Shown here: positions 1-64,000 of the stretch, in pieces
How positions within the stretch are numbered: position 1 is the stretch's first letter
Layout: each line of letters opens with the position of its first letter
Virus record (IMG/VR): IMGVR_UViG_3300009779_000001
Coordinates: 5,527-69,526 of that record
Origin: a virus
Lineage: Duplodnaviria; Caudoviricetes
Length of the DNA stretch: 64,000 bases
Reading direction: 5' to 3' (one strand)
Notes under the pieces: model-generated
The model's input: only the letters and a program-made list of their open reading frames with translations
Database searches by the model: none
What the model was told of the DNA's origin: nothing
Made by a program: the position numbers and the translations under genes

Positions 1-1725
1 GCGTATGCCGACCTGACGGGCAAGCCGACGCTGGGAAGTGCGGCGGCAACGGATAGCACTGCCTATGCAACAGCGGCTCAGGGAGCCACCGCTGATAGTG
101 CAGTTCAACCTGGCGATCTTTCTACAGTGGCAACTACCGGGGCTTATTCAGATTTAACGGGAAAGCCAGCGTTGTTTTCCGGTGCTTACGCTGACTTGAC
201 GGGTGCCCCAGTTCTCTCCAGCTATGCAACAAAAACCGGAACGGAAACATTAACAAACAAAACCCTAACAAGCCCCACTCTCAGCGCACCGCGTTTTGCT
301 TCCAGTAACTATATTGCTGATAGCACTGGATATCCGCTTCTTCAGTTCTACGCGGCTTCTTCTCCTAATAGCTGGTTGAGTCTTTCCAATGCCAGTGATG
401 GAACGCTGGACCTCACTGCTGAAGGTACCGCGACCAATGTCGGCATGATCTTCACCATGCGTGGCACCGGAGCCATGACGATCAATGTTCCGGTTGGGCA
501 GACTCCGACCTTGGCTGCGGCAGGCGGGTCAACGGACCACGATTTCAACATCACTAGTAAGGGTGCGGGAAAGGTCAAGGCCAATGGGGTGGAAGTTGTC
601 ACCCTGACTAATACTCAGACATTAACGAACAAAACTATCAACTCGTCAAATCTGAATGGGCCAAAGATCGTTGACGGGATCGTTAAAGATATCAACGCCA
701 ACTACATGTTGACGTTCAGCCCGGTAGCGAGTGCCGTCAATTACTTCCAGTTCACCAATCGCGCTACTGGTGTCGGTGATCCGACGTTGGGTGTGGCCGG
801 TTCGGATGCGAACGTATCTCTTGATCTAGTGTCAAAGGGTACGGGAATCGTAAAGATTAATTCTGTTGCTGCTGTAACAGTTTCCGGTACGCAGACGTTG
901 ACGAATAAAACCATTGATGCTAGCAGCAATACAATTTCTAACATTTCCCAGTCTGCCGTCACTAGTCTCGTTTCTGACCTTGCCGGGAAAGCCACTTCCG
1001 CTCAGGGTGCGCTAGCCGACTCTGCTGTGCAGCCAGGTGACCTTGCCACTGTCGCTACCACTGGTGCGTATTCAGATGTGACAGGCACCCCCGATCTTTC
1101 GGGTTACGCCACCAAGACCGGCACTGAAACTCTCACCGGTAAGACGATCAGCGGCAGCAGTAACACCATCACAAACCTTCCGGTGTCTGCTCTGCCTGAT
1201 CCGCACCCGGCGTTCCAGACTGAGCTAGCCAGCGGTGTTCTCACTATCCCCAGGTTCGTTGTCGGTGACGTTGGCTGGAACTACCACTCCAACATCCTCC
1301 ACCTGACCTACCTGTATCCGCAGGAGAACAGGACTGTCAGCGACCTGACCGTCTATGTGAGGGATGCTGGCGGGGCAGCTACCACGGCGCAACTAGGTTT
1401 GTATTCGGTGGACGGCAGCGGGAACCTGACGTTGTTGGAATCAACTACTAATGACACCGATCTGCTTACGTCTGCGTGGACCGATAAAACTAAAGCGTTG
1501 AGCGATTCTGTTGATTTGGTGGCGGGTAACGCATACGCAATTGGCTATCTTCTTGTCACTTCCAACAGTGTGGGTTCGGTTGAGGGCATGGGTGGCCGTT
1601 GGGGGCTGCATGTTTCCGCTCCACGTTTGGCTGGGAAGTTGGATGGTCAGACCTCGTTGCCGTCGTCCATCACCGCCGGGTCCATTCTCGACAATGGGAT
1701 CATGCTGCTGGTTCGGGCGAGCTAA
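1..1725 (+). CDS. 5'-truncated virion fibre/decoration-type structural protein with internal repeats
   Basis: Frame is open from base 1 (AYADLTGKPTLGS...) to TAA at 1723-1725. It has several T[EQ]TLT[NG]KT repeats and a duplicated ADSAVQPGDLxTVATTGAYSDxTG module, and is Thr/Ser/Gly/Ala rich. Confidence 0.6.
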   Translation, partial: AYADLTGKPTLGSAAATDSTAYATAAQGATADSAVQPGDLSTVATTGAYSDLTGKPALFSGAYADLTGAPVLSSYATKTGTETLTNKTLTSPTLSAPRFASSNYIADSTGYPLLQFYAASSPNSWLSLSNASDGTLDLTAEGTATNVGMIFTMRGTGAMTINVPVGQTPTLAAAGGSTDHDFNITSKGAGKVKANGVEVVTLTNTQTLTNKTINSSNLNGPKIVDGIVKDINANYMLTFSPVASAVNYFQFTNRATGVGDPTLGVAGSDANVSLDLVSKGTGIVKINSVAAVTVSGTQTLTNKTIDASSNTISNISQSAVTSLVSDLAGKATSAQGALADSAVQPGDLATVATTGAYSDVTGTPDLSGYATKTGTETLTGKTISGSSNTITNLPVSALPDPHPAFQTELASGVLTIPRFVVGDVGWNYHSNILHLTYLYPQENRTVSDLTVYVRDAGGAATTAQLGLYSVDGSGNLTLLESTTNDTDLLTSAWTDKTKALSDSVDLVAGNAYAIGYLLVTSNSVGSVEGMGGRWGLHVSAPRLAGKLDGQTSLPSSITAGSILDNGIMLLVRAS

Positions 1726-1767
1726 AATGAGCTAGGATGAAGTTGATTCCCAAGAATAGGAGAGAAC

Positions 1768-1890
1768 GTGGAAGGCATTATGCTGGTGGTAGATCGTTTG
1801 GGGCGCAGTGTCGCTGAGCTTGAACGAGCCAATGCGGAGCTTATCGAAAAGGTCAAGGAGCTTGAAGCCGTCATTAATACTTCCGATTAA
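1768..1890 (+). CDS. 40-aa coiled-coil protein, possible fibre chaperone
   Basis: AGGAG SD, GTG start, MEGIMLVVDRLGRSVAELERANAELIEKVKELEAVINTSD with heptad pattern. Not in the supplied ORF track. Confidence 0.5.
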   Translation: MEGIMLVVDRLGRSVAELERANAELIEKVKELEAVINTSD

Positions 1891-1899
1891 GTGGGAGTA

Positions 1900-2331
1900 A
1901 TGGACCCTTCTCACCCTGAGCATCGAAACCATCTGATTTCAACAAAGGGTCGAAGAACTGAGCGAGTGTGGAATGGCGATCCTCCGCTTTTTGAATCGAC
2001 AATAAAAGAGCTATTGCTTGACTGGGGCCGCAAACGAACTGAGCAGTGCGGGTTTATTGAGGCTGAAAATCAAGACCTTTACTATGTAGACAATATTCAC
2101 CAGTATCCAAAGATGAATTTTTTGATGCACGGTGAGCAAACAGAACTTGCATTAGAACGAATTTACAACACTCTAGAGTCTTCTGTTTTGGGAATTTTCC
2201 ATACTCATCCTAATAACGTGCCGTGGCCCTCTCCACGAGATATCGTTGGATGGCCGAATCCACAACTTAATTGGAGGTACTTTGTTGTGACCTCTGAAGA
2301 AGTTCTTGAATGGAAGTTGGCTGATGACTGA
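1900..2331 (+). CDS. JAB/MPN+ (JAMM) metalloprotease-domain protein
   Basis: EQCGFI plus complete JAMM motif H-T-H-x7-S-x2-D (HTHPNNVPWPSPRD); GGGAG SD before ATG 1900. Confidence 0.85.
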   Translation: MDPSHPEHRNHLISTKGRRTERVWNGDPPLFESTIKELLLDWGRKRTEQCGFIEAENQDLYYVDNIHQYPKMNFLMHGEQTELALERIYNTLESSVLGIFHTHPNNVPWPSPRDIVGWPNPQLNWRYFVVTSEEVLEWKLADD

Positions 2332-3208
2332 CTTCGATGTTTTGCGGCAAAGGTGGTTGAATCGGTACATTGCCGTACAAACAAAAACCGATACAAAAAT
2401 TAGAACCGTTTTGGTAGAGGGAGCCGAGGACGCTCAGAAAAAAATCAATGCGCTGGAAAAGAAGACTACGTTTTCTTCTGTTGTGCGAACCGCTCAAGTA
2501 CGAGCGGTAATGAAAGTAGTGAGGGAAGTTCTCAATGACGTGTTCGGGCAAGTCACTCCCATCATTTTTGATGGGCAAAAGCAAGAAGCTGTTGCAGCAG
2601 TTGATGGATTTACTAGCACGGATCGTGACTTTTTGCGTGCTGCTCTTGGCTCAACTGGTGCTGTGGATGATTTCATTGCGTCACAAAGACTGCAAGCAAA
2701 AATCCAAGTCGCACACACAGTCAACAGAATCACAAAGTCAGAGCGAATCCTTTCCCAGCGAGTTTATCGAACACGAGCGTTAGCTAACCGCTGGGTCCAG
2801 CGGGACGTGAACTCTGGAATTTTACGGGGCGACAGTGCCAGGGATATCGCAAAAACAGTTCGTCGGCACATTCGTCCCTCAACGGCAGGCGGGGTGAGCT
2901 ACGCCGCTCTTCGTTTGGGGAGAACGGAACTCAATAATGCGTTTCATGCCACGGCGATTTCTTTGGCTGAAGATCGTCCTTGGGTTCAGGGAATGCAGTG
3001 GCATCTTTCCCAAGTCCATACTTTTGACCCCAACAAAATAGAGATTTGTGAAACCTATAGTAAAAAGGTATTTCCCGTAAGTAAGGTTCCACCAAAACCG
3101 CACCCTCAGTGTCGGTGCTTCATCACCCCGGTTTTAGAGTCGAGTGATTCGTTCATTCGTCGCTTGACAGCGGGTGAATTTAACGATTGGATTGAGAATG
3201 CAGCGTAA
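2324..3208 (+). CDS. MuF-like head morphogenesis/capsid maturation protein
   Basis: RLGRTELNNAFH, W-x-L, C...PPxPHPQCRC motifs typical of MuF-like proteins; lies upstream of the scaffold. Confidence 0.65.
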   Translation: MTDFDVLRQRWLNRYIAVQTKTDTKIRTVLVEGAEDAQKKINALEKKTTFSSVVRTAQVRAVMKVVREVLNDVFGQVTPIIFDGQKQEAVAAVDGFTSTDRDFLRAALGSTGAVDDFIASQRLQAKIQVAHTVNRITKSERILSQRVYRTRALANRWVQRDVNSGILRGDSARDIAKTVRRHIRPSTAGGVSYAALRLGRTELNNAFHATAISLAEDRPWVQGMQWHLSQVHTFDPNKIEICETYSKKVFPVSKVPPKPHPQCRCFITPVLESSDSFIRRLTAGEFNDWIENAA

Positions 3209-3239
3209 CGAGCCGCAAGACAAAGTGAGGACAAAGCGA

Positions 3240-3977
3240 ATGAATTTCGCCAAGATTGATCGACGTGGATTGCCCCCTCTTGAGCTTGCCAAAATGGCAA
3301 TGCCATTTTTCGGTGGGGAAGAGGAAGCGAAAGCTTCAGAGGAAACCTCTGGCGAACAAGCCACTGCTACTGCGGAAACCGAAACTACTGCGGAGGAAAG
3401 TGGTGACGTTTCCACTTCTCAGAAACTTGCTGAAAATCCTGAGGCTGTTGCCGATCTTCTGAAGCAGCTTTCTGAAGCGACGAAGACGATCAAGGATTTG
3501 TCGAAGAAGAACGAGGGGTACGAAAACGAGCGTAAGCAGGCAGAGCGAGCGCAGCAGACTCGTGAGCAGCAGCTTGAAGGTGATCTGCATGATGCTCAAC
3601 AGACTATTGCTCAGATGGATGCTGTGATTCGGCATACTGCTGCGATCAATGCTATTCAGAACCTCAAGGACTACCAATTCCATTCTGCTCGTCATGTTCT
3701 CAATGAAATTGATCCCAATGAATTTGAGATTACGGTCGATTTGCAGAACGGAACGGCAACCGTTGAGGGAATCGAAAATGCGGCGAAGCGTGTTGCCAAG
3801 GATATGCCCTGGTTGGTTGCTCAGGCATCCGGTGACAAACAGAGTCGGAATGTGAGTTCTCCCCGAAATAGCGGGAACCCGCCAAGCAATCCTAATAGCG
3901 GAGCAGACAAAGCTGCGCGGCGATCCGACTTGATGAAGAAATTCCCGGTAATTGCGGCAGGGCGCGGCAGTCGCTAA
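3240..3977 (+). CDS. capsid scaffolding protein
   Basis: Acidic N-terminus, coiled-coil core, low-complexity tail ending KKFPVIAAGRGSR; precedes capsid genes. Confidence 0.7.
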   Translation: MNFAKIDRRGLPPLELAKMAMPFFGGEEEAKASEETSGEQATATAETETTAEESGDVSTSQKLAENPEAVADLLKQLSEATKTIKDLSKKNEGYENERKQAERAQQTREQQLEGDLHDAQQTIAQMDAVIRHTAAINAIQNLKDYQFHSARHVLNEIDPNEFEITVDLQNGTATVEGIENAAKRVAKDMPWLVAQASGDKQSRNVSSPRNSGNPPSNPNSGADKAARRSDLMKKFPVIAAGRGSR

Positions 3978-4048
3978 GCGTGTTGCGCGAGATTAAACGA
4001 AACCAAAACTGATACTATTCAGTACGAGCGATCTTAACGGAGGACAAA

Positions 4049-4783
4049 ATGGCTCTCACCACTGTGCCGCGCTGGGACAAGTACGATCCCTACGTTGGTA
4101 ATTTTCGCGGCACTCTGGCCGCTGATGTTGACCTCGCTACCCAGGCCAATAAGGTTCTCGCCGTTGGTCTGAATTCAGACGGGGCTGTCACTATCGGTAG
4201 TGGCACCAGCGGAATCAAAGGTGTCATCATCATCCCCGTGGGCAAGGACATGCATGGTGTTCTTCTCGACGGCGGTGTCAACATCGAAGCTGGCGATCTG
4301 TGTGACGTTGGCAAGCATGGAGAAATCACCAGCTTCTCGCCTACGGTTCTTACCTACACCCAGGTGATTACCGTTGACGGTACCGCTGACGGTGGAACCT
4401 TCACGCTGACGCTGGGTGGCAAGACCACTTCCGCTCTTGCCTACAACATCACTGGTGCCAACCTGAAGACTACTCTCGTCGCTCTGGATGACGGTCACAC
4501 TTCGGACGATTTCACCGTTACCGGTAATGGTCCGTACTCGGTGACCTACAACCAGGCATGGGGAGTGCTGACCGACGATGACGCGCTGATTACCGTGTCG
4601 GCTACTCCGACTCCTGACCTCGTGACCATCACTCAGCCTTCGACCACCGCTGTCGCTGGCACCAACTACTACGGTCATGCTGACGGTTCGGTGACCGCAG
4701 TGGAGGGCGCAGACGGCGTGTACGTCGGGCACACGGTTGAGGCTGACCGGCTCATCGTCAACGTCCTCGACGCAACTTCGTAA
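4049..4783 (+). CDS. capsid decoration/minor capsid protein with inserted beta-sandwich domain
   Basis: Strong SD (GGAGG); position between scaffold and major capsid; GGTFTLTLGGKTT..L.YN...L..AL insert. Confidence 0.6.
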   Translation: MALTTVPRWDKYDPYVGNFRGTLAADVDLATQANKVLAVGLNSDGAVTIGSGTSGIKGVIIIPVGKDMHGVLLDGGVNIEAGDLCDVGKHGEITSFSPTVLTYTQVITVDGTADGGTFTLTLGGKTTSALAYNITGANLKTTLVALDDGHTSDDFTVTGNGPYSVTYNQAWGVLTDDDALITVSATPTPDLVTITQPSTTAVAGTNYYGHADGSVTAVEGADGVYVGHTVEADRLIVNVLDATS

Positions 4784-4815: not shown

Positions 4816-6029
4816 ATGTTGGCAGATAAGGAATTCGGGATGCTGACGATCAACGGTATTCCCATTGGTCCGATCTTCGGTGGTACTCAGCCGGTTCGTC
4901 AGGAAGGTATGCTCACTTCCGGTGATCTGGTTACCGTCACTTCTGACGGCATTGACCTCAATGCGCTGTGGAATTCTTTCGCAGAATCCATCAGTATCTA
5001 CAACGAGGCAATGGACGATCTGATCGAACTGCTCACCTATCCGGTGACCACGCCGATTGAGCCTGTCGTCCAGATCGGTGAGCTTACCTTTGAGGAAGCT
5101 TCTGAAATCGGTGTCCCGCGTGGTGCCGGTTTGCCGATTGAAGTCTTCCAAATGGGCTACGATCTGCGTCACTACGACAAGCGAAACGTCTTCACCTGGA
5201 TGTTCTTGGCTGATGCCGACGCTCGTCAGGTCGAAGCGATCCACGAAGCTGTCCTCTGGCTGACAAGCGTCTTGTCTTCCGCAAGATTCTTGAGGCTCTG
5301 TTCGACAACCGGACTCGTCGTGCCAACATTCGTACCCAGGCGTACAGCGTTTACCCGCTGTATAACGGTGACGGTGTTGCCCCGCCGCGCTTCAAGAACA
5401 ACACGTTCGATGAGAGCCACAATCACTACATGATTTCCAGCAATTCGACGCTGGACTCGTCGGACCTGGATGACCTGCTGGAACAGATCACTGAGCATGG
5501 TTATTCGCCGCAGGCGGGAACAATGTTCCTGCTCTTGGCGAACAAAGCTGAAACCGACGTTATTCGTACCTTCCGCAGGGGGGTTGTGAATAACAACGGT
5601 GCTACCGCTGCTTACGATTTCATTCCTTCTCCGACGCAACCGGCAATGATTTTGCCGAATGCTGAAGGTCTGTTGGGCAATCAGCCTGCTCCGCTGTTCG
5701 GCAATCTGCCTGTGATCGGTTCCTACGGCTTCTGGCACATCGTTGAGGAAGAGTACATCCCCAGCGGTTATCTGCTGGGTGTCGGCTTCGGCGGTCGCTT
5801 CAATCTCGCCAATCCGGTCGGCCTGCGTCAGCACGCTAACCCGGCCATGCAGGGGCTTCGCATTCTCCCCGGCAACTACCAGCGATACCCGATCATCGAC
5901 GGCTTCTACGCTCGCAGCTTCGGTACCGGTATCCGGCAGCGTGGCGGTGCGGCCATCATGCAGGTCAAGGCTTCGGGAACCTACGATATCCCGACGCAGT
6001 ACAAGAAGGGCGGGGGCTTCCTCGTCTAA
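4816..6029 (+). CDS. major capsid protein (~404 aa), split by a -1 frameshift at ~5257-5259
   Basis: Adding one G at TGG|GCT joins ORFs 4816-5433 and 5430-6029 into a continuous, codon-biased frame (EAVLWADKRLVFRKILEALFDNR...HNHYMISSN). Followed by a terminator. Confidence 0.85.
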
Positions 6030-7742: not shown

Positions 7743-8161
7743 TTCCGTCAGCAATTTTTGAAGCCCTAGATGGAGATTCTATACTTGAGTCTTATGACAT
7801 TAGTTCAAATACGATTTTTGAGCTTCAATCTTTGGATGATCGGCCTGTGAAAGACGGCTATTTCGTTGTCATCAATTTTGAAGAGTCTACTGTTCTTGGC
7901 CCTCGTAAAAAGGGGCCGCGAATAATGACGATATGGGTTCATCATCCTATGGAAAAAGACAGGGATTATGCCCCTGTTGATGCAATTCTTAATCGAATTG
8001 AAGGCATTCTTCTTGGCCTTGAACAGACAACTGGATCAGACAATGTGCGAGTTACCTGTATTATGAAACAAGGCAGGTCAAGAAACCTTATTGATCCAGC
8101 CTGGAAGACAATTGCCAGGAACGCGACATACGGTGTTTTATATGACGAAACACTCCCCTGA
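7739..8161 (+). CDS. putative tail terminator
   Basis: Synteny, 140 aa, ATGA overlap with the previous gene. Confidence 0.5.
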   Translation: MIPSAIFEALDGDSILESYDISSNTIFELQSLDDRPVKDGYFVVINFEESTVLGPRKKGPRIMTIWVHHPMEKDRDYAPVDAILNRIEGILLGLEQTTGSDNVRVTCIMKQGRSRNLIDPAWKTIARNATYGVLYDETLP

Positions 8162-58535: not shown

Positions 58536-58859
58536 ATGACTAACCTCACCGACCGCATGGCACGCATCGCGTGGATCACCCACCGGGACCGGCAGCTAGC
58601 CCAACTGGGCATGAAGCCAAGCGAATACGCCGCCGATATCCCGATACCGGACTGGGCCTACACCCTGGCCGACGCGGTGATCGCGGAACTGAGTCTGCGC
58701 CACGTCATCGACTACTGCGAGCGGGAGGCTGGCGTGGGCTGGCGTGACGTGGGCACAGCCGATGAGGCTATGGGTCGCAACATCGTCGCCGAGACCGTGT
58801 TGACGATCCTGGAAGGAGGGTCTTTTCATGGGTGGAATGAGCAAATGGACCGTCCTTGA
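58536..58859 (+). CDS. MSDNLRYRIAA-family mini-protein 4 (divergent)
   Basis: Starts MTNLTDRMARI; has LADAVIAELSL; overlaps the terminase start. Confidence 0.6.
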   Translation: MTNLTDRMARIAWITHRDRQLAQLGMKPSEYAADIPIPDWAYTLADAVIAELSLRHVIDYCEREAGVGWRDVGTADEAMGRNIVAETVLTILEGGSFHGWNEQMDRP

Positions 58860-60468
58860 TGCAAAATACAAGGACGAGAATGGGGAAGTACGGCGGGTTT
58901 TTGAACCACACGAAGCCCAATTAAGGGTGATGGAAGACCCCAGCCGTATGAAAGTTCTTCCCTGCGGAAGACGTTTGGGAAAATCAAATATGGAAGCACA
59001 TGAGCTTTTGCCATATGCGTTTCTCGCCAGAAAGCGGGCCAGTACGCTCAGGGCTAACGGTCAACGCATGGAATATTGGATTGTGGGACCAGAATATGCT
59101 GATTCGGAAAAAGCGTTTCGTGTCTTCTATGACAAATGCTCAAAGTTAGGTCTGCCCTTTGATCGTCCCGGCACCTACTATTCGGTACAAACCGGAGATA
59201 TGGTGGTGTCTCTTTGGGAAGGTGCCTTCATCCTTCAGGCTAAATCTGAGAACAGGCCGAATAGCTTGGTCGGTGAAGCTCTTTCCGGTGTCATCTTTGA
59301 TGAAGCTGCGAAGATGAAACAAAACACTTGGGATCAGTTGATTCGTCCGACACTAGCCGACTTCGGCGGGTGGGCGATCTTCACGTCCACGCCAGAAGGA
59401 AAGAATTGGTTCCACCGTCTGTATATGGACTCGATTCAGCCGGGGAACGAAGGCTGGAACGGATTCAGGATTCCCTCGTGGAAGAATCCCCACGTTTTTC
59501 GTACCGAAACCAGGGACGATCACGTCAAGCGGTTACTGCACATTATGAACGATCATCCTGAACTAACGGCGTTCGATATCATCTGTAAAGAAAACCTTGT
59601 GATTGATCGTGAGATAGCACAGATGGCAAACGATCTGACTATCCCTATGTTCCAGCAGGAGGTTGCCGCAGATTTCACAGATTTCGTCGGTAAGGTTTTT
59701 AAAGAGTTTGACGAAGAGACTCACACCAGACTCCTTCCCTATAATCCGAATTGGGAAACTGTTGCAGCGGTAGACTACGGATACAGAAACCCAAATGTTT
59801 GGCTACTCATACAAATTGGTCCGTGGGGAGAAATCAATGTTATTGACGAACTGTACCAAGAGAATCTAGCCCCTGATGAGTTTGCACATGAGATTCTTAG
59901 ACGAGGGTTATTACCCGATAGCTGTACTTCGTTCTACCCAGACCCAGCATCACCGGGTGACACGCGCACGCTGGAAAATATATTCCGTCGCGCTGGGAAG
60001 CGTGTTTCGGCTCGACCCCACACCGGCGGGGAATTATCTAATCGACTCAACCTCATCCGACTCGCCCTCAAAGATAGAGTCAACGATCACGAACTCAACG
60101 CCCCAAACTGGAAAAAACACCCAGCAGGAAAAGACAAACAACGTCCAAGAATGATGATTTCCACCAAGTGTGGGCACACCATTTATGAGCTTGGACAGTA
60201 TCGTTATCCCGAAATGAAAAACGAGCAGGTCGAATCTTCAACGAAAAGATTTGAAATGCCCATGAAGAAGGACGATCACACGCCAGAGGCGTTAGGTCGA
60301 TTCCTTGCCGGTCGCTACCACGACGCTGCCACGCAGTACGGCGGGGGAACGCGGATCAGCCACGCCAAATTCTTGCGTGGGTTGGGCAGCAAGCGGGATT
60401 ATGGTGCAGAGCCAGCAGGTATCGGGGCTAGGCATACAGGCAAAGTTCGTGGAACGTGGAAAGGTTAA
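58837..60468 (+). CDS. terL: terminase large subunit
   Basis: GRRLGKS Walker A, GVIFDEAA Walker B, TSTP motif, AVDYG nuclease motif, DDHTPEAL. Start 58837 or 58828. Confidence 0.95.
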   Translation: MSKWTVLDAKYKDENGEVRRVFEPHEAQLRVMEDPSRMKVLPCGRRLGKSNMEAHELLPYAFLARKRASTLRANGQRMEYWIVGPEYADSEKAFRVFYDKCSKLGLPFDRPGTYYSVQTGDMVVSLWEGAFILQAKSENRPNSLVGEALSGVIFDEAAKMKQNTWDQLIRPTLADFGGWAIFTSTPEGKNWFHRLYMDSIQPGNEGWNGFRIPSWKNPHVFRTETRDDHVKRLLHIMNDHPELTAFDIICKENLVIDREIAQMANDLTIPMFQQEVAADFTDFVGKVFKEFDEETHTRLLPYNPNWETVAAVDYGYRNPNVWLLIQIGPWGEINVIDELYQENLAPDEFAHEILRRGLLPDSCTSFYPDPASPGDTRTLENIFRRAGKRVSARPHTGGELSNRLNLIRLALKDRVNDHELNAPNWKKHPAGKDKQRPRMMISTKCGHTIYELGQYRYPEMKNEQVESSTKRFEMPMKKDDHTPEALGRFLAGRYHDAATQYGGGTRISHAKFLRGLGSKRDYGAEPAGIGARHTGKVRGTWKG

Positions 60469-60483
60469 AGGTAGGATACTCGC

Positions 60484-62109
60484 ATGGGATACAACCTTAA
60501 GCAGTACAGCGCGGCTTTGGATTTCGTTTCTGGTGGGGATGCCAACGTCACGAATTCTGATGACAAGCGACGTATCCAAGCTTACGATCTTTACGAAAAT
60601 CTTTACATCAACAGTTCACAAACGCTGAAAATCACGCTGCGTGGGGATGACTCGTATCCAATTCTCATGCCCAGTGGCAAGAAGATCATCGAAGCCACCA
60701 ACCGATTCCTTGGTGTGGGACTCAACTATTTCGTTGAAGGTCAAGGAGACAACGGAACGCAGCAGCAATTGGACTATTGGTTCGGCACGTTCTTCAAGCG
60801 GGAAGCCATTCGGTCCAAGTTCGCGTCCAGTAAGCGGTGGGGTCTGGTACGAGGGGATGGGTGCTTCTACCTCTACGGCAGCCCTGAGAAGCTTCCCGGC
60901 TCACGCCTCTCGCTGGTTGAGCTTGACCCCAGGCAGTTGTTTGAGATTGAGGATGCCAACGGCAAGGTGGTTGGCGTTCACATCGTGGATACGGTTCAGG
61001 ACTTCCGCGAACCTGACAAAGAGGACAAGAAAGTTGCGCGGCGCAGGACGTTTCGGTTGGTCTAACCAGAAGGCGGGTCAGAATCGGTTGGTGTTACCAG
61101 CGAACTGAAGTTCTTTGAAATCGGCAAATGGGATGACCGTACCGTCAAGTCTGCGGAAAAGATTGAGGCTGTTCCCAATCCCGGCGTTGACGAAGAGCCG
61201 TATCAGCTTCCTCCCTCTATTACTCAACTTCCTGTCTACAAATGGCGTAATAATCCTCCGCAGAACAGCACATGGGGTCACTCGCAGTTGACTGGGCTGG
61301 AAACGCTGTTGTACGCCATCAACCAGAGCCTGACTGACGAGGATGCCACGATGGTGTTCCAGGGGCTTGGTATGTACGTCACGAATGCGGCACCACCCCA
61401 GGATGAGGCGGGGAATACTACTGATTGGAATATCGGTCCCATGCAGATCATCGAAATCGGTACGGATCAAGAATTCACCAGGGTGACGGGTGTTTCTGAC
61501 GTTACTCCGTACCAGAACCACATGACGTTTATTGATGAAAAAGGTTTGAGTGAAGCTTCCGGCACTCCTGAGATTGCTATTGGGCGAGTGGATGTATCTG
61601 TTGCGGAGTCGGGAATTTCGTTGCAGTTGCAACTCATGCCTCTACTGGCGCAGAACGCGGAAAAAGAAGAAGAGCTTGTCAGCGTTTTAGATCAAATGTT
61701 CCACGATCTGACAACGATGTGGCTTCCGGCGTATGAGCCTGAAATGTTTCCCAGTTGGGAAGCCATGCAAGAAATGTCGGTGGTGACGATCTTTGATGAT
61801 CCCATGCCGAAGAATCGTGACGCGCAGGTTCAGGAAACGCTGCTACTGGTCACGTCGAACCTGATTCTCACGTCCATGGCGGTTGCCAAGCTGCGTTCGC
61901 TGGGTTGGAACTATCCGACTGTGGATATCAACGGCAATCCACTTAATGATGATGACATTGCTGCCATGCTCAATGAGCAGGCGAGCGCCAACGCCGTAGC
62001 ACAAGACCCGTTCTCCGCGCAATACCTGGGTGGTGATTCTGGTGGTGGCTTTGAGGATCAAGGTGTGTCGGAGCAGGATCAACAGACGATTGATCTTGGG
62101 AGCAGTTAA
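60484..62109 (+). CDS. portal protein (~541 codons) interrupted by one in-frame TAA at 61063-61065
   Basis: Follows terL. ORF 60484-61065 and ORF 61288-62109 are in the same frame, and the 61066-61287 gap is open (PEGGSESVGVTSELKFFEIGKWDDR...LPVYKWRN...WGHSQL). Confidence 0.85.
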
Positions 62110-62118
62110 AATCTAGGC

Positions 62119-62298
62119 ATGGCTAGATTTGGTTCTAAACGAACCAAAAGATTTCGCGCCTCGACACGGGTGCTCTACAGCGGTGGGATGCCCAGAATCA
62201 GTTTGATGACTCCTGGTATTAAAAGATACCGGAGGAAACCGCGCAACCGTGGTTCTCTTTCTGGTTTTATGAAAGAGCGCAGTAAAAATGGCTCGTAA
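62119..62298 (+). CDS. basic protein 1 (59 aa, MARF...)
   Basis: MARFGSKRTKRFRAS...KRYRRKPRNR; not in the supplied track. Confidence 0.6.
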   Translation: MARFGSKRTKRFRASTRVLYSGGMPRISLMTPGIKRYRRKPRNRGSLSGFMKERSKNGS

Positions 62299-62482
62299 AA
62301 AAAAGAAGAAAAAGGGTACTTACAGGGGTTTCAAGTCCAAGAAACAGTGGCGTTGGGCCTTCGCCAGCAAGCAGCCGTGGGCACGGGAAAAGGCACACAA
62401 AACCAAGGGTGGAAAGAAGGTTAGATACCGCAGACTTCCAGAATCAAAACATTCTGGAAAGAAGGGCAGGAGACACCCATAA
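62288..62482 (+). CDS. basic protein 2 (64 aa, MARK...)
   Basis: Lys/Arg rich; FKSKKQWRWAFA motif. Confidence 0.7.
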   Translation: MARKKKKKKGTYRGFKSKKQWRWAFASKQPWAREKAHKTKGGKKVRYRRLPESKHSGKKGRRHP

Positions 62483-62847
62483 TGGCACGTCGAGTAAGGA
62501 CCGCGAAGCAAAAGGCTGCGCTTCGCAAAGCCCAAGCTGCTTCCGCTCGTAAGAGAAGGAAGGGCGGCAAGAAAAAAGCCGGTGTTGTCAGGCGAGCGGG
62601 TCGAGAGGTCAAGCGCAGGTACCAGGCTGGACATAAGGGGCCGGGAGCGCATTATCGTCGCGCACGGGATTACTACAATTCCGAAGGCTACTACAAGACC
62701 AGAACCGGCGGGTCGAAGAAGAGGGCCGGGAAGATTCAGCGTGGGTATCGCAAGGCTAATTCCATTCGGCACGCGAACTATGCTTCTCTGACAATGTTGG
62801 GTGTTTCTTACGCGAGGGATAAGAAACGTAGGAAGAGCCGTCGCTGA
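62482..62847 (+). CDS. basic protein 3 (121 aa)
   Basis: MARRVRTAKQKAALRKAQAASARKRR. Confidence 0.75.
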   Translation: MARRVRTAKQKAALRKAQAASARKRRKGGKKKAGVVRRAGREVKRRYQAGHKGPGAHYRRARDYYNSEGYYKTRTGGSKKRAGKIQRGYRKANSIRHANYASLTMLGVSYARDKKRRKSRR

Positions 62848-63164
62848 TGGCTCGTTACGTTTTAACCCCAGCTAGAAAAGAGGCTTTGCGTAAGGCAAGG
62901 CTTGCTTCCGCACGAAAACGCAAGAAAAAAATTAAAGCTAAAAGCTCAAAGAAACTGGCTTCTAGAAGGTCGAAGCGCAGGGGCATTCAAGAATACGTTG
63001 ATGAAAATGGCCGCAAGTCTGGGATGGCTACAAATCGTTCCAGCAAAACTAATCGCGCTGCTTTTCGTAAATTACGAAGAGCTTCCCGTTACAACATAAG
63101 GTACGGGAGAAAAATGAAAAGAGTAGATCGTCGTATTAAGCGGTATTCAAAGAGAAAGAAGTAG
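62847..63164 (+). CDS. basic protein 4 (105 aa)
   Basis: MARYVLTPARKEALRKARLASARKRK. Confidence 0.75.
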   Translation: MARYVLTPARKEALRKARLASARKRKKKIKAKSSKKLASRRSKRRGIQEYVDENGRKSGMATNRSSKTNRAAFRKLRRASRYNIRYGRKMKRVDRRIKRYSKRKK

Positions 63165-63167
63165 CTC

Positions 63168-63431
63168 ATGGCTCGCTATCGTTTTACCGCAAAGCGTAAG
63201 GCAGCTTTGCGTAAAGCTCAGCGAGCTTCTGCGCGTGCTAGAAAACATCTGAAGAAACCCCATAAAAAAGTTCTCCCCCTCACCAACGGTCAGGTGTACG
63301 CCGTTCGTAGTGTCAGTGCTGTTTTAGGAGGGACCATGGGGGTGCTTGCCGTCCAAGGATACCGGCAATCCGCAATGGTGAACAGAGTTGTTAAAAGCGC
63401 AAACAAAACGAATTACGGAATGAGGTTCTGA
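63168..63431 (+). CDS. basic protein 5 (87 aa)
   Basis: MARYRFTAKRKAALRKAQRASARARK. Confidence 0.75.
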   Translation: MARYRFTAKRKAALRKAQRASARARKHLKKPHKKVLPLTNGQVYAVRSVSAVLGGTMGVLAVQGYRQSAMVNRVVKSANKTNYGMRF

Positions 63432-63432
63432 T

Positions 63433-64000
63433 ATGGCTCGTTATTTGATGACCGCGAAACGCAAAGCGGCTCTTCGGAAGGCTCAGCTAGCCTCTGCCCG
63501 TAAGCGGCGTAAAAATTATCGTAAAGCCAACAAAGAATCGAGAAGCACTGTTAGTAAGGCTTACGTTAAGGGTAAGTACGGTGGCCGGCTGGCAGCGGGG
63601 ATCGGCGTTGCTCAATATCGTGCGAAAAGGGATTACGCATGGAAGAAGCATAACAATGCCGTTAAGTACAAAGGTAAGAAACAATTAACAAGAAAACAGG
63701 CCAATCGCAGGTTTGCGGCAAAACAGGTCGGAACGTTTGCGGCATACTATGGAGCTTCGGCGGCTACGGCAGTTTTGTATGCGGGGGAGAATCCGCGCAA
63801 AGTTGCAGCAGCGGGAAGAACAGCGCGTCAGTTGCCGGGTGCTGTGGGTGCGTTCGGTAAAGGCTTTGCTCGTGGGTATGGGCAGAGTCGCGCTCGTCGG
63901 GCAGCCGCTAAACGGAATATGGCGCGTGCCAACTTCGGTTACGCCTCGTCGGTGAGGGTCGCTCAGCCAGCCCTTCCTCGTCGGGGGAGCAGCACTCGTA
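63433..64000 (+). CDS. basic protein 6 (3'-truncated, >189 aa)
   Basis: MARYLMTAKRKAALRKAQLASARKRR; frame is open to the window end; missing from the supplied track. Confidence 0.75.
   Translation, partial: MARYLMTAKRKAALRKAQLASARKRRKNYRKANKESRSTVSKAYVKGKYGGRLAAGIGVAQYRAKRDYAWKKHNNAVKYKGKKQLTRKQANRRFAAKQVGTFAAYYGASAATAVLYAGENPRKVAAAGRTARQLPGAVGAFGKGFARGYGQSRARRAAAKRNMARANFGYASSVRVAQPALPRRGSSTR

Follow-up and report, generated by a model that had tools for sequence, protein, structure and literature searches.

The right-hand end of the window analysed here (64,000 nt; positions 5,527 to 69,526 of IMG/VR record IMGVR_UViG_3300009779_000001) raises the question of what a row of short, strongly basic proteins encoded directly after a phage portal gene might do. 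A sequence-only reading had described this region as a tandem array of six genes, four of them encoding a common N-terminal motif followed by unrelated bodies, and had proposed an actinophage system analogous to the T4 internal proteins, with a conserved peptide loading variable basic cargo into the head. The six ORFs are found exactly where they had been placed, on the + strand, and all start with Met-Ala-Arg. Their high Lys/Arg content was borne out (K+R 24–42%; pI 11.8–12.0), as was the motif common to four of them (ORFs 3–6, A03–A06). These six genes represent under half of the whole array. The record was assembled as a circle, with a terminal direct repeat (end overlap) of 123 bp; the window ends where the record ends, and the array spans the circular junction, resuming beyond the window at genome positions 1–4646 with eight further genes. 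The complete array consists of 14 tightly coupled + strand genes covering 6,405 bp, or 9.2% of the genome, with intergenic spacing of -11 to +3 nt (overlaps/gaps). The 14 proteins have pI values of 11.4–12.0 and net charges of +17 to +54 apiece, for a sum of +519. The genes are the following, A07–A14 being given in coordinates of L001 (genome 1–12000), outside the window:

62119..62298, + strand: A01, 59 aa, net charge +17, without the motif; counterpart of Patience gp111 (E 0.005); phrog_25887
62288..62482, + strand: A02, 64 aa, 42% K+R, without the motif; Patience gp10 orthologue (93% identity); phrog_1375 (E 7e-32)
62482..62847, + strand: A03, 121 aa, motif at residues 7–25; tail type D, common to Barnyard, DrLupo and L012
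62847..63164, + strand: A04, 105 aa, motif at residues 7–25, 42% K+R; tail type I, common to L019
63168..63431, + strand: A05, 87 aa, motif at residues 7–25; Gly/Ala hydrophobic helix at about residues 46–62
63433..64000 (window end), + strand: A06, motif at residues 7–25; the full ORF, of 194 aa, extends to genome base 140 (123-bp overlap removed)
L001 140–868, + strand: A07, motif present
L001 861–1070, + strand: A08, motif present
L001 1064–1648, + strand: A09, motif present
L001 1645–2148, + strand: A10, motif present
L001 2145–2834, + strand: A11, motif present
L001 2831–3739, + strand: A12, motif present
L001 3739–4023, + strand: A13, motif present
L001 4014–4646, + strand: A14, gp18-like, degenerate motif

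The array is embedded among head genes; the window contains the following neighbours:

58828..60468, + strand: large terminase subunit (TerL; Pfam Terminase_6N), 67% identical to gp6 of Mycobacterium phage Patience
60484..62109, + strand: portal gene, from its translation; 60% identity to the portal of L010 across 548 residues
1..1725 (whole gene: genome 4969–7251), + strand: C-terminal portion of an acidic 760-aa protein
1891..2331, + strand: JAB/JAMM metalloprotease-like gene, Patience gp19 homologue (phrog_5556, E 2e-40; synteny)
2306..3208, + strand: MuF-like head morphogenesis gene (phrog_17987, phrog_1657; synteny)
3174..3977, + strand: scaffolding protein (phrog_4866, E 6e-40), N-terminal half acidic by charge profile
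4816..6029, + strand: major capsid protein gene, reading frame broken near codon 150

Judged by sequence, the phage is related to the mycobacteriophages Patience and cluster H, and the TerL identity upholds the earlier assignment to an actinophage; a megablast search of the region against phage records gave no match. The same slot is found in 15 IMG/VR loci, in the order portal, gp10-like gene, array, gp18-like gene, JAMM, MuF, scaffold, minor capsid and capsid genes, and an A02-like gene directly follows the portal gene in 7 related loci. Between A14 and the JAMM gene, the present genome carries an insertion composed of the gene for the 760-aa acidic protein and an LtfC-like 109-aa gene (PF23926 LtfC), which Patience lacks. 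The portal gene contains one in-frame TAA (61063–61065) at a place where relatives have Tyr, and tblastn locates the major capsid protein's residues 3–149 in frame 1 and residues 132–405 in frame 3. The record may therefore contain sequence errors or correspond to a defective variant.

The N-terminal motif, T-[PA]-x-R-[RK]-A-A-L-[RK]-K-A-Q-x-x-S-A-R-K-R, is present in 11 of the 14 array genes. Searching the six-frame translation of the genome with a motif HMM returned 11 ORFs (E 4e-15 to 5e-10), every one of them within the array, and no match outside it; the motif thus recurs far above chance. The 11 paralogous motifs share an amino-acid identity of 0.81 and a third-codon-position identity of 0.34, with 68% of the identical residues encoded by differing codons. 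Third codon positions are therefore saturated, which indicates selection on the peptide and not on a DNA repeat, and an origin of the motif as a DNA-level repeat or as a product of recent gene conversion was rejected on these grounds. The C-terminus of the scaffold, a possible lookalike (TRRKAL-like), was likewise rejected, its HMM scores falling below the 95th percentile of shuffles. In AlphaFold2 predictions, the motif forms a helix that is the top-scored part of both models (pLDDT 84–89). An amphipathic character was rejected (hydrophobic moment 0.19, matched by 74% of shuffles); the modelled helix carries positive charge on all sides, which would suit a helix surrounded by DNA. Comparison of the module with PDB sequences gave nothing significant, and no paper came up when the literature was searched in full text for the core of the motif.

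Past the motif, BLASTP detected no similarity among ORFs 3–6, in agreement with the unrelated bodies described earlier, and Pfam gave nothing meaningful for any array protein. The bodies are not unrelated in every respect, since a Gly/Ala-rich hydrophobic helix is common to most family members. It occurs within about 70 residues past the motif in 9 of the 11 motif ORFs (A05–A13), later in A06 (around residue 99) than in the others; A03 and A04 have the motif without this helix. The module can be described as a Thr-Pro/Ala-capped Ala/Arg/Lys-rich helix, a short basic linker and a hydrophobic helix, rich in Gly/Ala, whose last residue is usually Tyr. Each member combines a conserved N-terminal module with a fast-evolving, strongly basic and mostly domain-free tail. 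The array orthologues of DrLupo and Barnyard have modules that are 90–100% identical, with dN/dS values of 0.19–0.26 overall and 0.28–0.35 in the tails (for comparison, 0.14 for the portal and 0.08 for the capsid protein), so that the tails are also under purifying selection (dN/dS about 0.3).

The sequence-only reading had proposed an HMM search for the motif and for array copy number across actinophages. A profile of the module matched at least 889 protein clusters at E<=1e-3, and the 15 IMG/VR loci carry 1–9 motif genes per locus. Among the best 150 of the 889 clusters, nearly all have the module at residue 1 and 143 have the hydrophobic helix, the median net charge being +37. Tails are very diverse: 145 of them, from the best-listed family members, fall into 66 BLAST groups with 46 singletons. 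Several tail types are nevertheless conserved orthogroups whose order is fixed across genomes. The family is divided among phrog_32101, 38146, 31200, 32594, 19343, 16007 and 28158 (matches down to E 7e-9). In the same slot, Gordonia phage Lambo encodes basic proteins with Gly/Ala helices and without the strict motif.

The closest known counterparts are direct homologues in Patience (cluster U) and in cluster H phages (Barnyard, DrLupo, Konstantine and Damien), which have the same slot, motif, hydrophobic helix and basic composition as the array described here. The motif is present in Patience gp11, 13, 14, 15, 17 and 18. Four orthogroups are shared with Patience at the sequence level (A02/gp10, A08/gp11, A11/gp14 and A14/gp18, the last with 43% identity). 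A12 and A13 correspond to gp15 and gp17 only in position and architecture (their tails fall into different clusters, G/C and F/K, with pairwise E 0.06–0.07), and five array members have tails lacking relatives in the compared loci. HPLC-MS/MS identified Patience gp111 and gp10–gp18 as virion proteins, the 31-residue gp9 alone in this slot not being among them (Pope 2014, PMC4324244). Most of these genes were called orphams, without mention of a common motif, and gp15 was assigned as 'likely', from its predicted mass, to one of three major SDS-PAGE bands (PMC4324244). By mass spectrometry, gp15 is among the most abundant Patience proteins (PMC7150772). In these papers, the proteins of the slot are described only as virion proteins of unknown function (PMC4324244, PMC7150772). 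The presence in virions anticipated by the earlier reading is thus observed for homologues in a relative, and the absence that it had named as a refutation did not, in effect, come about there; the data are whole-virion spectra that do not distinguish proteins of the head interior from those of the tail or stuck to the particle.

The explanation that we favour, at about an even chance, is that the products of the array form a family of paralogous, polycationic proteins that the virion carries, most likely in the interior of its head. From the Patience homologues detected in virions, we infer that the array proteins are probably associated with DNA and carried inside the head, and from there how they could be loaded, contact the DNA and be ejected. 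Translation of the array would be coupled, in a single late operon that also comprises the portal, MuF-like and scaffold genes, and the array products would enter the procapsid before the DNA. They could be retained by the conserved module together with attraction to the surfaces of the scaffold, portal and capsid protein, which are acidic (portal C-part -39, scaffold -8, capsid-protein N-part -16). During packaging, the approximately 520 positive charges of a one-of-each set would serve as fixed counter-ions in the midst of the packed duplexes. At infection, the proteins would exit together with the DNA, after which the hydrophobic helix or the rare globular tails may act on the host. Very basic proteins could also co-purify with DNA-filled particles, and the ordered, conserved orthogroups could instead be defined structural parts.

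Adenovirus core proteins VII and mu and the protamines, which neutralise and condense dsDNA (in the capsid, in the case of adenovirus), are likewise Arg/Lys-rich, without homology to the array proteins. Since the DNA of tailed phages is pumped in naked, the array proteins, unlike adenovirus core proteins, would have to be pre-loaded. Short peptides that dock cargo inside HK97-fold shells are known from the C-terminal signal of the HK97 protease, the C-terminal helix-turn-helix of the P22 scaffold and the cargo-loading peptides of encapsulins. The idea of a terminal docking peptide is the same, and the P22 element is also basic and helical; however, these peptides are C-terminal with known binding sites, whereas the array element is N-terminal and its docking role putative. 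We tentatively suggest, as a possibility, that the bipartite module is an independently evolved cargo-loading and anchoring signal for HK97-fold capsids, by which Patience/cluster-H-like phages would pre-load hundreds of polycationic proteins and occasional enzymes (the ADP-ribosyltransferase-like A07 tail, the SLOG domain of P0168) for delivery with the DNA.

The T4 internal proteins IPI, IPII, IPIII and Alt, the latter an ADP-ribosyltransferase, carry a capsid-targeting sequence. They resemble the array in that several basic proteins, alike in an N-terminal element but with divergent bodies, are encoded together, occur in the virion (for the array, via homologues) and are considered DNA-bound. 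There is no sequence similarity between the two systems; the array module, at about 25 + 20 residues, is far longer and contains a hydrophobic helix, and in the present phage, a siphovirus whose head is T=7, packaging and injection of these proteins are putative. The proposal that the motif is a transferable tag, analogous to the T4 capsid-targeting sequence, that loads unrelated effectors or anti-defence enzymes for co-injection is only partly borne out. It was strengthened by the virion association of the homologues, and is compatible with the N-terminal position of the module, the diversity of tails, the presence of the module on a gp18-like protein and its fusion to a YAcAr/SLOG domain in P0168. 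We nevertheless regard it as unlikely in this form, because tails are mostly basic and domain-free and do not look like enzymes (a Pfam match in only 2 of the best 150 of 889 family representatives, just one of them enzyme-like), tail types follow each other in a fixed, conserved order like dedicated components, and a simple tag does not explain the second conserved element, the hydrophobic helix. Moreover, we found no T4-type prohead-protease site (L/I-x-E type) after the motif, where positions are rich in K, R and G, and recognised no gp21-type protease. A Gly-Gly site for the JAMM protease at this place was rejected as a general feature (8 of 146 only).

A candidate for an enzymatic cargo is the A07 tail. 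Its matches to the Tox-ART-HYD1, Arr-ms and DarT/PARP clusters of the protein Atlas have a score of 0.80 (structural TM 0.45 to PARP), below threshold, and it matches Pfam PARP (E 0.06) and PDB Tpt1 (E 0.9) both at LYHNT...SIKKNGL, again sub-threshold. An Arr-ms HMM had no match in the genome, and the AlphaFold2 model of A07 failed (pLDDT 45). Two homologues of A07 were found in all; a metagenome scan for its relatives found none, and tblastn of the A07 tail and of A13 against phage records gave no match, probably owing to low-complexity masking. These leads are weak, convergent and all sub-threshold, and we treat an ADP-ribosyltransferase activity of A07 as a lead only. The A12 tail gave no usable match in the Atlas. 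Homologues of A14/gp18 are labelled capsid maturation protease, and the match of A14 to phrog_12708 (E 3e-58) reflects family membership only. A14 has no Pfam or PDB sequence match, its AlphaFold2 model (pLDDT 66) has no Foldseek match at E<=0.001, and the conserved His is missing in 2 of 29 gp18-like members. In Patience, it is gp19 and not gp18 that has been called the protease (PMC4324244), and gp19 contains HxHx7SxxD.

The conserved module could itself be the working part of virion proteins, its hydrophobic helix entering the host membrane at ejection as a 'glycine zipper' and aiding a DNA conduit, with the basic regions merely holding the protein on DNA until then. The H pilot protein of phiX174 and the ejection proteins of P22 and T7 are virion-internal, have glycine-zipper or hydrophobic helices, exit the capsid and build such a conduit; the array proteins share this type of helix with them, without homology and without a coiled-coil body. 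As the most widely kept feature, retained even in Lambo, the helix lends itself to this idea, and its Kyte-Doolittle means of 1.2–1.9 over 17 residues are borderline transmembrane. Both flanks being basic, stable insertion in the membrane of the producing cell is unlikely, which fits storage in the particle. We consider a conduit function quite improbable, however, since the helical segments are short and of low hydrophobicity, members lacking the helix (A03, A04, and copies in Barnyard and DrLupo) retain the motif, and the tape-measure protein of siphoviruses already serves in envelope crossing.

The succession of a basic N-region and a Gly/Ala-rich hydrophobic stretch is also reminiscent of a signal anchor or Tat signal, and Damien gp8 (RefSeq) and phrog_19343 are labelled 'membrane protein'. 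The proteins might then act in the membrane of the infected cell (in exclusion or lysis timing, for example) and appear in virion preparations only through polycation stickiness. This is very unlikely: the whole Patience slot bar gp9 was recovered from purified particles, with gp15 as a major species, the genes lie within the head-assembly operon in every relative, and the C-terminal tails (pI about 12) are as basic as the N-termini, against the positive-inside rule. Inspection of the alignment revealed neither the Tat consensus S/T-R-R-x-F-L-K directly before the helix nor an A-x-A site after it. A role as external decoration or cement proteins, once proposed for gp15 as the sole remaining accessory capsid protein candidate by abundance (PMC7150772), is scarcely tenable, since the density was not matched by the gp15 model (PMC7150772), in current RefSeq labels gp22 is the minor and gp4 the accessory capsid protein, known decoration proteins do not resemble pI 12 proteins that carry hydrophobic helices, and the only shell components named in the searched text of the later 2.4 Å capsid paper are the major and a minor capsid protein plus gp4, with gp15 unmentioned there (PMC11965321), which we read as gp15 not being part of the ordered shell.

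Should the array proteins act as counter-ions of DNA within the head, they would be relevant to the way in which 'supersized' T=7 capsids accommodate 70 kb of DNA. A module acting as a loading signal would be of practical use as a tag, both to package proteins into mycobacteriophages and in actinophage engineering, enzymatic tails would be injected effectors, and a true cargo-loading role would reveal a T4-like internal-protein system in siphoviruses. Much work has been done on the internal head proteins of T4, P22, T7 and jumbo phages; to our knowledge, they have hardly been studied in siphoviruses of Actinobacteria. Patience, which grows on M. smegmatis, is engineerable and has members already known from particles, including one that is present in very many copies, provides a direct test bed for these readings. 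The family is large, easily recognised and tandemly amplified, occupying up to 9% of a genome. The array reported here is the largest among the compared genomes, with 11 strict motif copies as compared to 6 in Patience, 4 in DrLupo and 3 in Barnyard; Damien has a single strict copy and additional degenerate ones. The closest metagenomic relatives have a gp18-like protein (P0002) with 79% identity.

The virus record is 69,526 bp long, and the window spans its bases 5527-69526. The first 123 bases of the record recur as its last 123; the IMG/VR entry gives direct terminal repeats and a completeness of 100%. The record is therefore a circular assembly (69,403 bp), which makes the right edge of the window an arbitrary cut. 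Since the record ends fall within A06, any window-based reading of the array of basic genes that follows the portal gene is truncated. The sequence-only reading had described a tandem array of six open reading frames beginning Met-Ala-Arg, and these lie exactly where it placed them. The array is real, but six genes are too few: the sixth, A06, crosses the junction and stops at genome base 140, and genome 140-4646 holds eight further genes of this type, so that the true size is 14, more than double.

Window 62119-64000, + strand: A01-A06, first part of the basic array
Window 63878-64000 and genome 1-123: 123-bp terminal direct repeat, marking a circular assembly
L001:140-868 (L001, genome 1-12000), outside the window: A07, with LYHNT...SIKKNGL in its tail
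L001:4650-7251, ending in window 1-1725: LtfC-like beta-sandwich gene (PF23926) and gene for a 760-aa acidic protein, between the gp18-like and JAMM genes

Together A01-A14 cover 6,405 bp (9.2% of the genome) and encode 2,137 residues. Junctions between array genes range from -11 to +3 nt (overlap or spacing), and purine-rich Shine-Dalgarno-like sequences precede most of the genes. Every array protein has a pI of 11.4-12.0 and a net charge between +17 and +54, the array summing to +519.

In eleven of the proteins, A03-A13, the motif T-[PA]-x-R-[RK]-A-A-L-R-K-A-Q-x-x-S-A-R-K-R lies near the N-terminus. A motif HMM run against the six-frame translation of the genome matched these eleven ORFs and nothing else. 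The copy in A14 is degenerate; the strict motif occurs in A14 homologues elsewhere, including gp18 of Mycobacterium phage Patience. Among the 55 pairs of motif paralogues, amino-acid identity is 0.81 versus 0.34 at third codon positions, and identical residues use different codons in 68% of cases. Conservation of the motif acts at the protein level: third codon positions have diverged while the peptide was kept, so the copies are old duplicates under selection on the peptide. The same divergence rules out a DNA repeat, a regulatory element and a product of recent gene conversion. In both AlphaFold2 models run, the motif is a helix and the top-scored stretch (pLDDT 84-89), with a predicted Thr-Pro/Ala cap at its start. 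An amphipathic helix was rejected, positive charge being present on all sides. Gly-Gly directly past the motif is rare, and a resemblance of the scaffold C-terminus to the motif was not significant. As annotated, Patience gp13 (L002 7944-8486, in the Patience genome) has its motif from residue 2 onwards. An in-frame start upstream, at 7944, would supply the usual basic N-terminal lead (…HYKMTPRRK…), so that the true start may lie upstream of the annotated one at 7977.

Most members also have a Gly/Ala-rich hydrophobic stretch of 14-20 residues, usually with a Tyr at its end, about 10-25 residues past the motif. The hydrophobic stretches quoted in the sequence-only reading are part of this second conserved element. 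The bodies following the motif had been considered unrelated; BLASTP indeed found no relation among the tails of this genome, but most proteins share the hydrophobic element, and the bodies are thus not wholly unrelated. Judged from sequence, the family is built of a bipartite N-terminal module, about 60 residues long, and divergent tails behind it. Possible roles of the hydrophobic helix are anchoring to the shell, oligomerisation and, once the protein has been ejected, insertion into the host membrane.

A profile built from 36 modules was run against 1.84 billion cluster representatives. With a cut-off of E<=1e-3 it matched 889 clusters, and with E<=1e-10 it matched 131; among the matches listed, proteins are 69-322 residues long and the module starts from residue 1 in nearly all. 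In the best 150 of the 889, a MAR or MAK start is found in 116, the median K+R content is 26%, the median net charge is +37, and the hydrophobic helix is present in 143, where it lies a median of 9 residues past the motif. In this set 145 tails were long enough for comparison; BLASTP sorts them into 66 groups, of which 46 are singletons. Pfam matches were obtained for two of the 150: a YAcAr/SLOG domain in P0168, a metagenomic family member, and an ETRAMP match that is likely a low-complexity artefact. All family members traced to their source are metagenomic, on contigs of up to 66-69 kb. This genome has 11 motif copies; IMG/VR loci have up to 9, Patience 6, DrLupo 4, Barnyard 3, and Damien one strict copy plus several degenerate ones. 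In Gordonia phage Lambo (TerL 48%) the strict motif is absent, but the corresponding slot encodes basic proteins that have Gly/Ala helices, so the architecture predates the motif.

TerL is 67% identical to that of Patience (cluster U) and 57-60% to those of cluster H phages. The order portal, gp10-like, basic array, gp18-like, JAB/JAMM, MuF-like, scaffold, minor capsid protein and major capsid protein is kept in Patience, Barnyard, Damien, DrLupo and 15 IMG/VR loci. A01 resembles Patience gp111, A14 is 43% identical to gp18 and A02 93% identical to gp10; motif and hydrophobic helix both occur in the translated genes of Patience gp11, 13, 14, 15, 17 and 18. The sequence-only reading named absence from virions as a refuting condition, and homologues are present in Patience particles: Pope et al. 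2014 analysed purified particles by HPLC-MS/MS, and their Table 1 includes gp111 and gp10-gp18 as virion proteins (PMC4324244). Products of the structural-operon insertions were found in particles for all but the 31-residue gp9, and gp15 (32 kDa) was assigned to one of three major gel bands (PMC4324244). Podgorski et al. 2020 found gp15 among the most abundant proteins of the capsid preparation, and its model fits no shell density (PMC7150772). In the searched text of the 2.4 A Patience capsid paper, the shell components named are gp4, a minor capsid protein and the major capsid protein, and gp15 goes unmentioned (PMC11965321).

A02 (window 62288-62482; 64 aa, 42% K+R) belongs to a sizeable PHROG family, phrog_1375 (E 7e-32), found directly after the portal in most relatives. 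Its identity to gp10, set against 67% for TerL, indicates far tighter constraint than in neighbouring genes. For A14/gp18, neither Pfam nor a fold search nor PDB sequences backed the 'head maturation protease' label (phrog_12708).

Tails of this genome, Patience and 12 loci were clustered. Tail orthogroups hold a fixed order ahead of the gp18-like gene, among them the A11/gp14, A12 and A13 types and, further upstream, the A08/gp11 and A03 types. Patience gp15 and gp17 fall into other tail clusters than A12 and A13, so that these pairs match by position and architecture only. None of the compared loci has a counterpart of the tails of A05, A06, A07, A09 and A10. When DrLupo is compared with Barnyard, array genes have a dN/dS of 0.19-0.26 and the tails taken alone 0.28-0.35, versus 0.14 for the portal, 0.15 for the gp18-like gene and 0.08 for the capsid protein. 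Purifying selection therefore acts on the tails too, but is two to three times looser there than on core head genes. These comparisons indicate that the tails are functional and partly orthologous.

The array is a large, ancient and expressed family inside the head-assembly operon. From this position, from the extreme positive charge beside acidic head proteins (-39 for the C-terminal part of the portal, -8 for the scaffold with its acidic N-terminal half, -16 for the N-terminal part of the capsid protein) and from the virion homologues, of which the abundant gp15 is not named as a shell component in the searched text of PMC11965321, we infer that the array products are internal head proteins. 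The DNA pumped by the packaging motor is naked, so these proteins would need to be in the procapsid beforehand, retained there by the conserved module, by electrostatic attraction to the acidic scaffold and shell interior, or by both. They would act as fixed counter-ions for the packed genome and exit together with it. With charge all round it, the motif helix would sit more readily between DNA duplexes than docked against the surface of a protein.

The T4-like interpretation, in which a targeting peptide carries variable basic cargo, survives in part. Homologues are virion proteins (PMC4324244). A strict 'tag plus cargo' model is a less likely possibility, weakened by the near absence of globular cargo and by tail types conserved in order. 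Two exceptions speak for it and are worth following up. P0168 (66.6-kb contig) fuses module and hydrophobic helix to the YAcAr/SLOG domain (Pfam E 1e-14); it is the sole clear globular 'cargo' in the best 150 of 889 representatives. The A07 tail gives sub-threshold signals in Atlas, Pfam and PDB sequence searches, all pointing to the first ADP-ribosyltransferase catalytic motif, and the weak leads converge on PARP, Tpt1, Arr and Tox-ART. An Arr-ms HMM gave no match in this genome, the AlphaFold2 model was of low confidence, and only two homologues were found. The A07 tail is possibly a packaged enzyme; as an ADP-ribosyltransferase it would recall T4 Alt.

Siphoviral actinophages thus hold an internal-protein-like family defined by the bipartite N-terminal module. 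A full-text literature search for the core motif string gave no match, the papers cited here do not mention the module, and members have so far been annotated only as hypothetical or virion proteins.

At the insertion site of the LtfC-like and 760-aa protein genes Patience has nothing, whereas the equivalent region of Lambo contains an esterase gene and tail-fibre-like genes; accessory virion genes seem to accumulate in the portal-to-MuF slot, as at a hot spot. Further features concern the head genes themselves.

Window 61063-61065: in-frame TAA in the portal gene, Tyr (TAY) in relatives
Window 4816-6029: major capsid protein gene, frameshift near codon 150 (window about 5160-5300)
Window about 3240-3320 (scaffold N-terminus) and about 4840-4900 (capsid protein N-terminus): P-[IF]-F-G-G motif (MPFFGG, PIFGGT)

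Apart from this one codon, the 542-codon portal frame is uninterrupted, with 60% identity to the portal of a relative; the TAA could be a sequencing or assembly error, mark a defective variant or be read through. The capsid protein aligns over residues 3-149 in frame 1 and 132-405 in frame 3; counting the portal stop, two essential genes of the record are broken. The N-terminal P-[IF]-F-G-G common to scaffold and capsid protein is kept in Patience, Barnyard, Damien and DrLupo. Patience gp21 peptides start at residue 35, just past this Gly-Gly (Pope 2014, PMC4324244). By analogy with JAB/JAMM enzymes, which cleave at GG on ubiquitin-like tails, the adjacent JAB/JAMM protein may cleave after GG.
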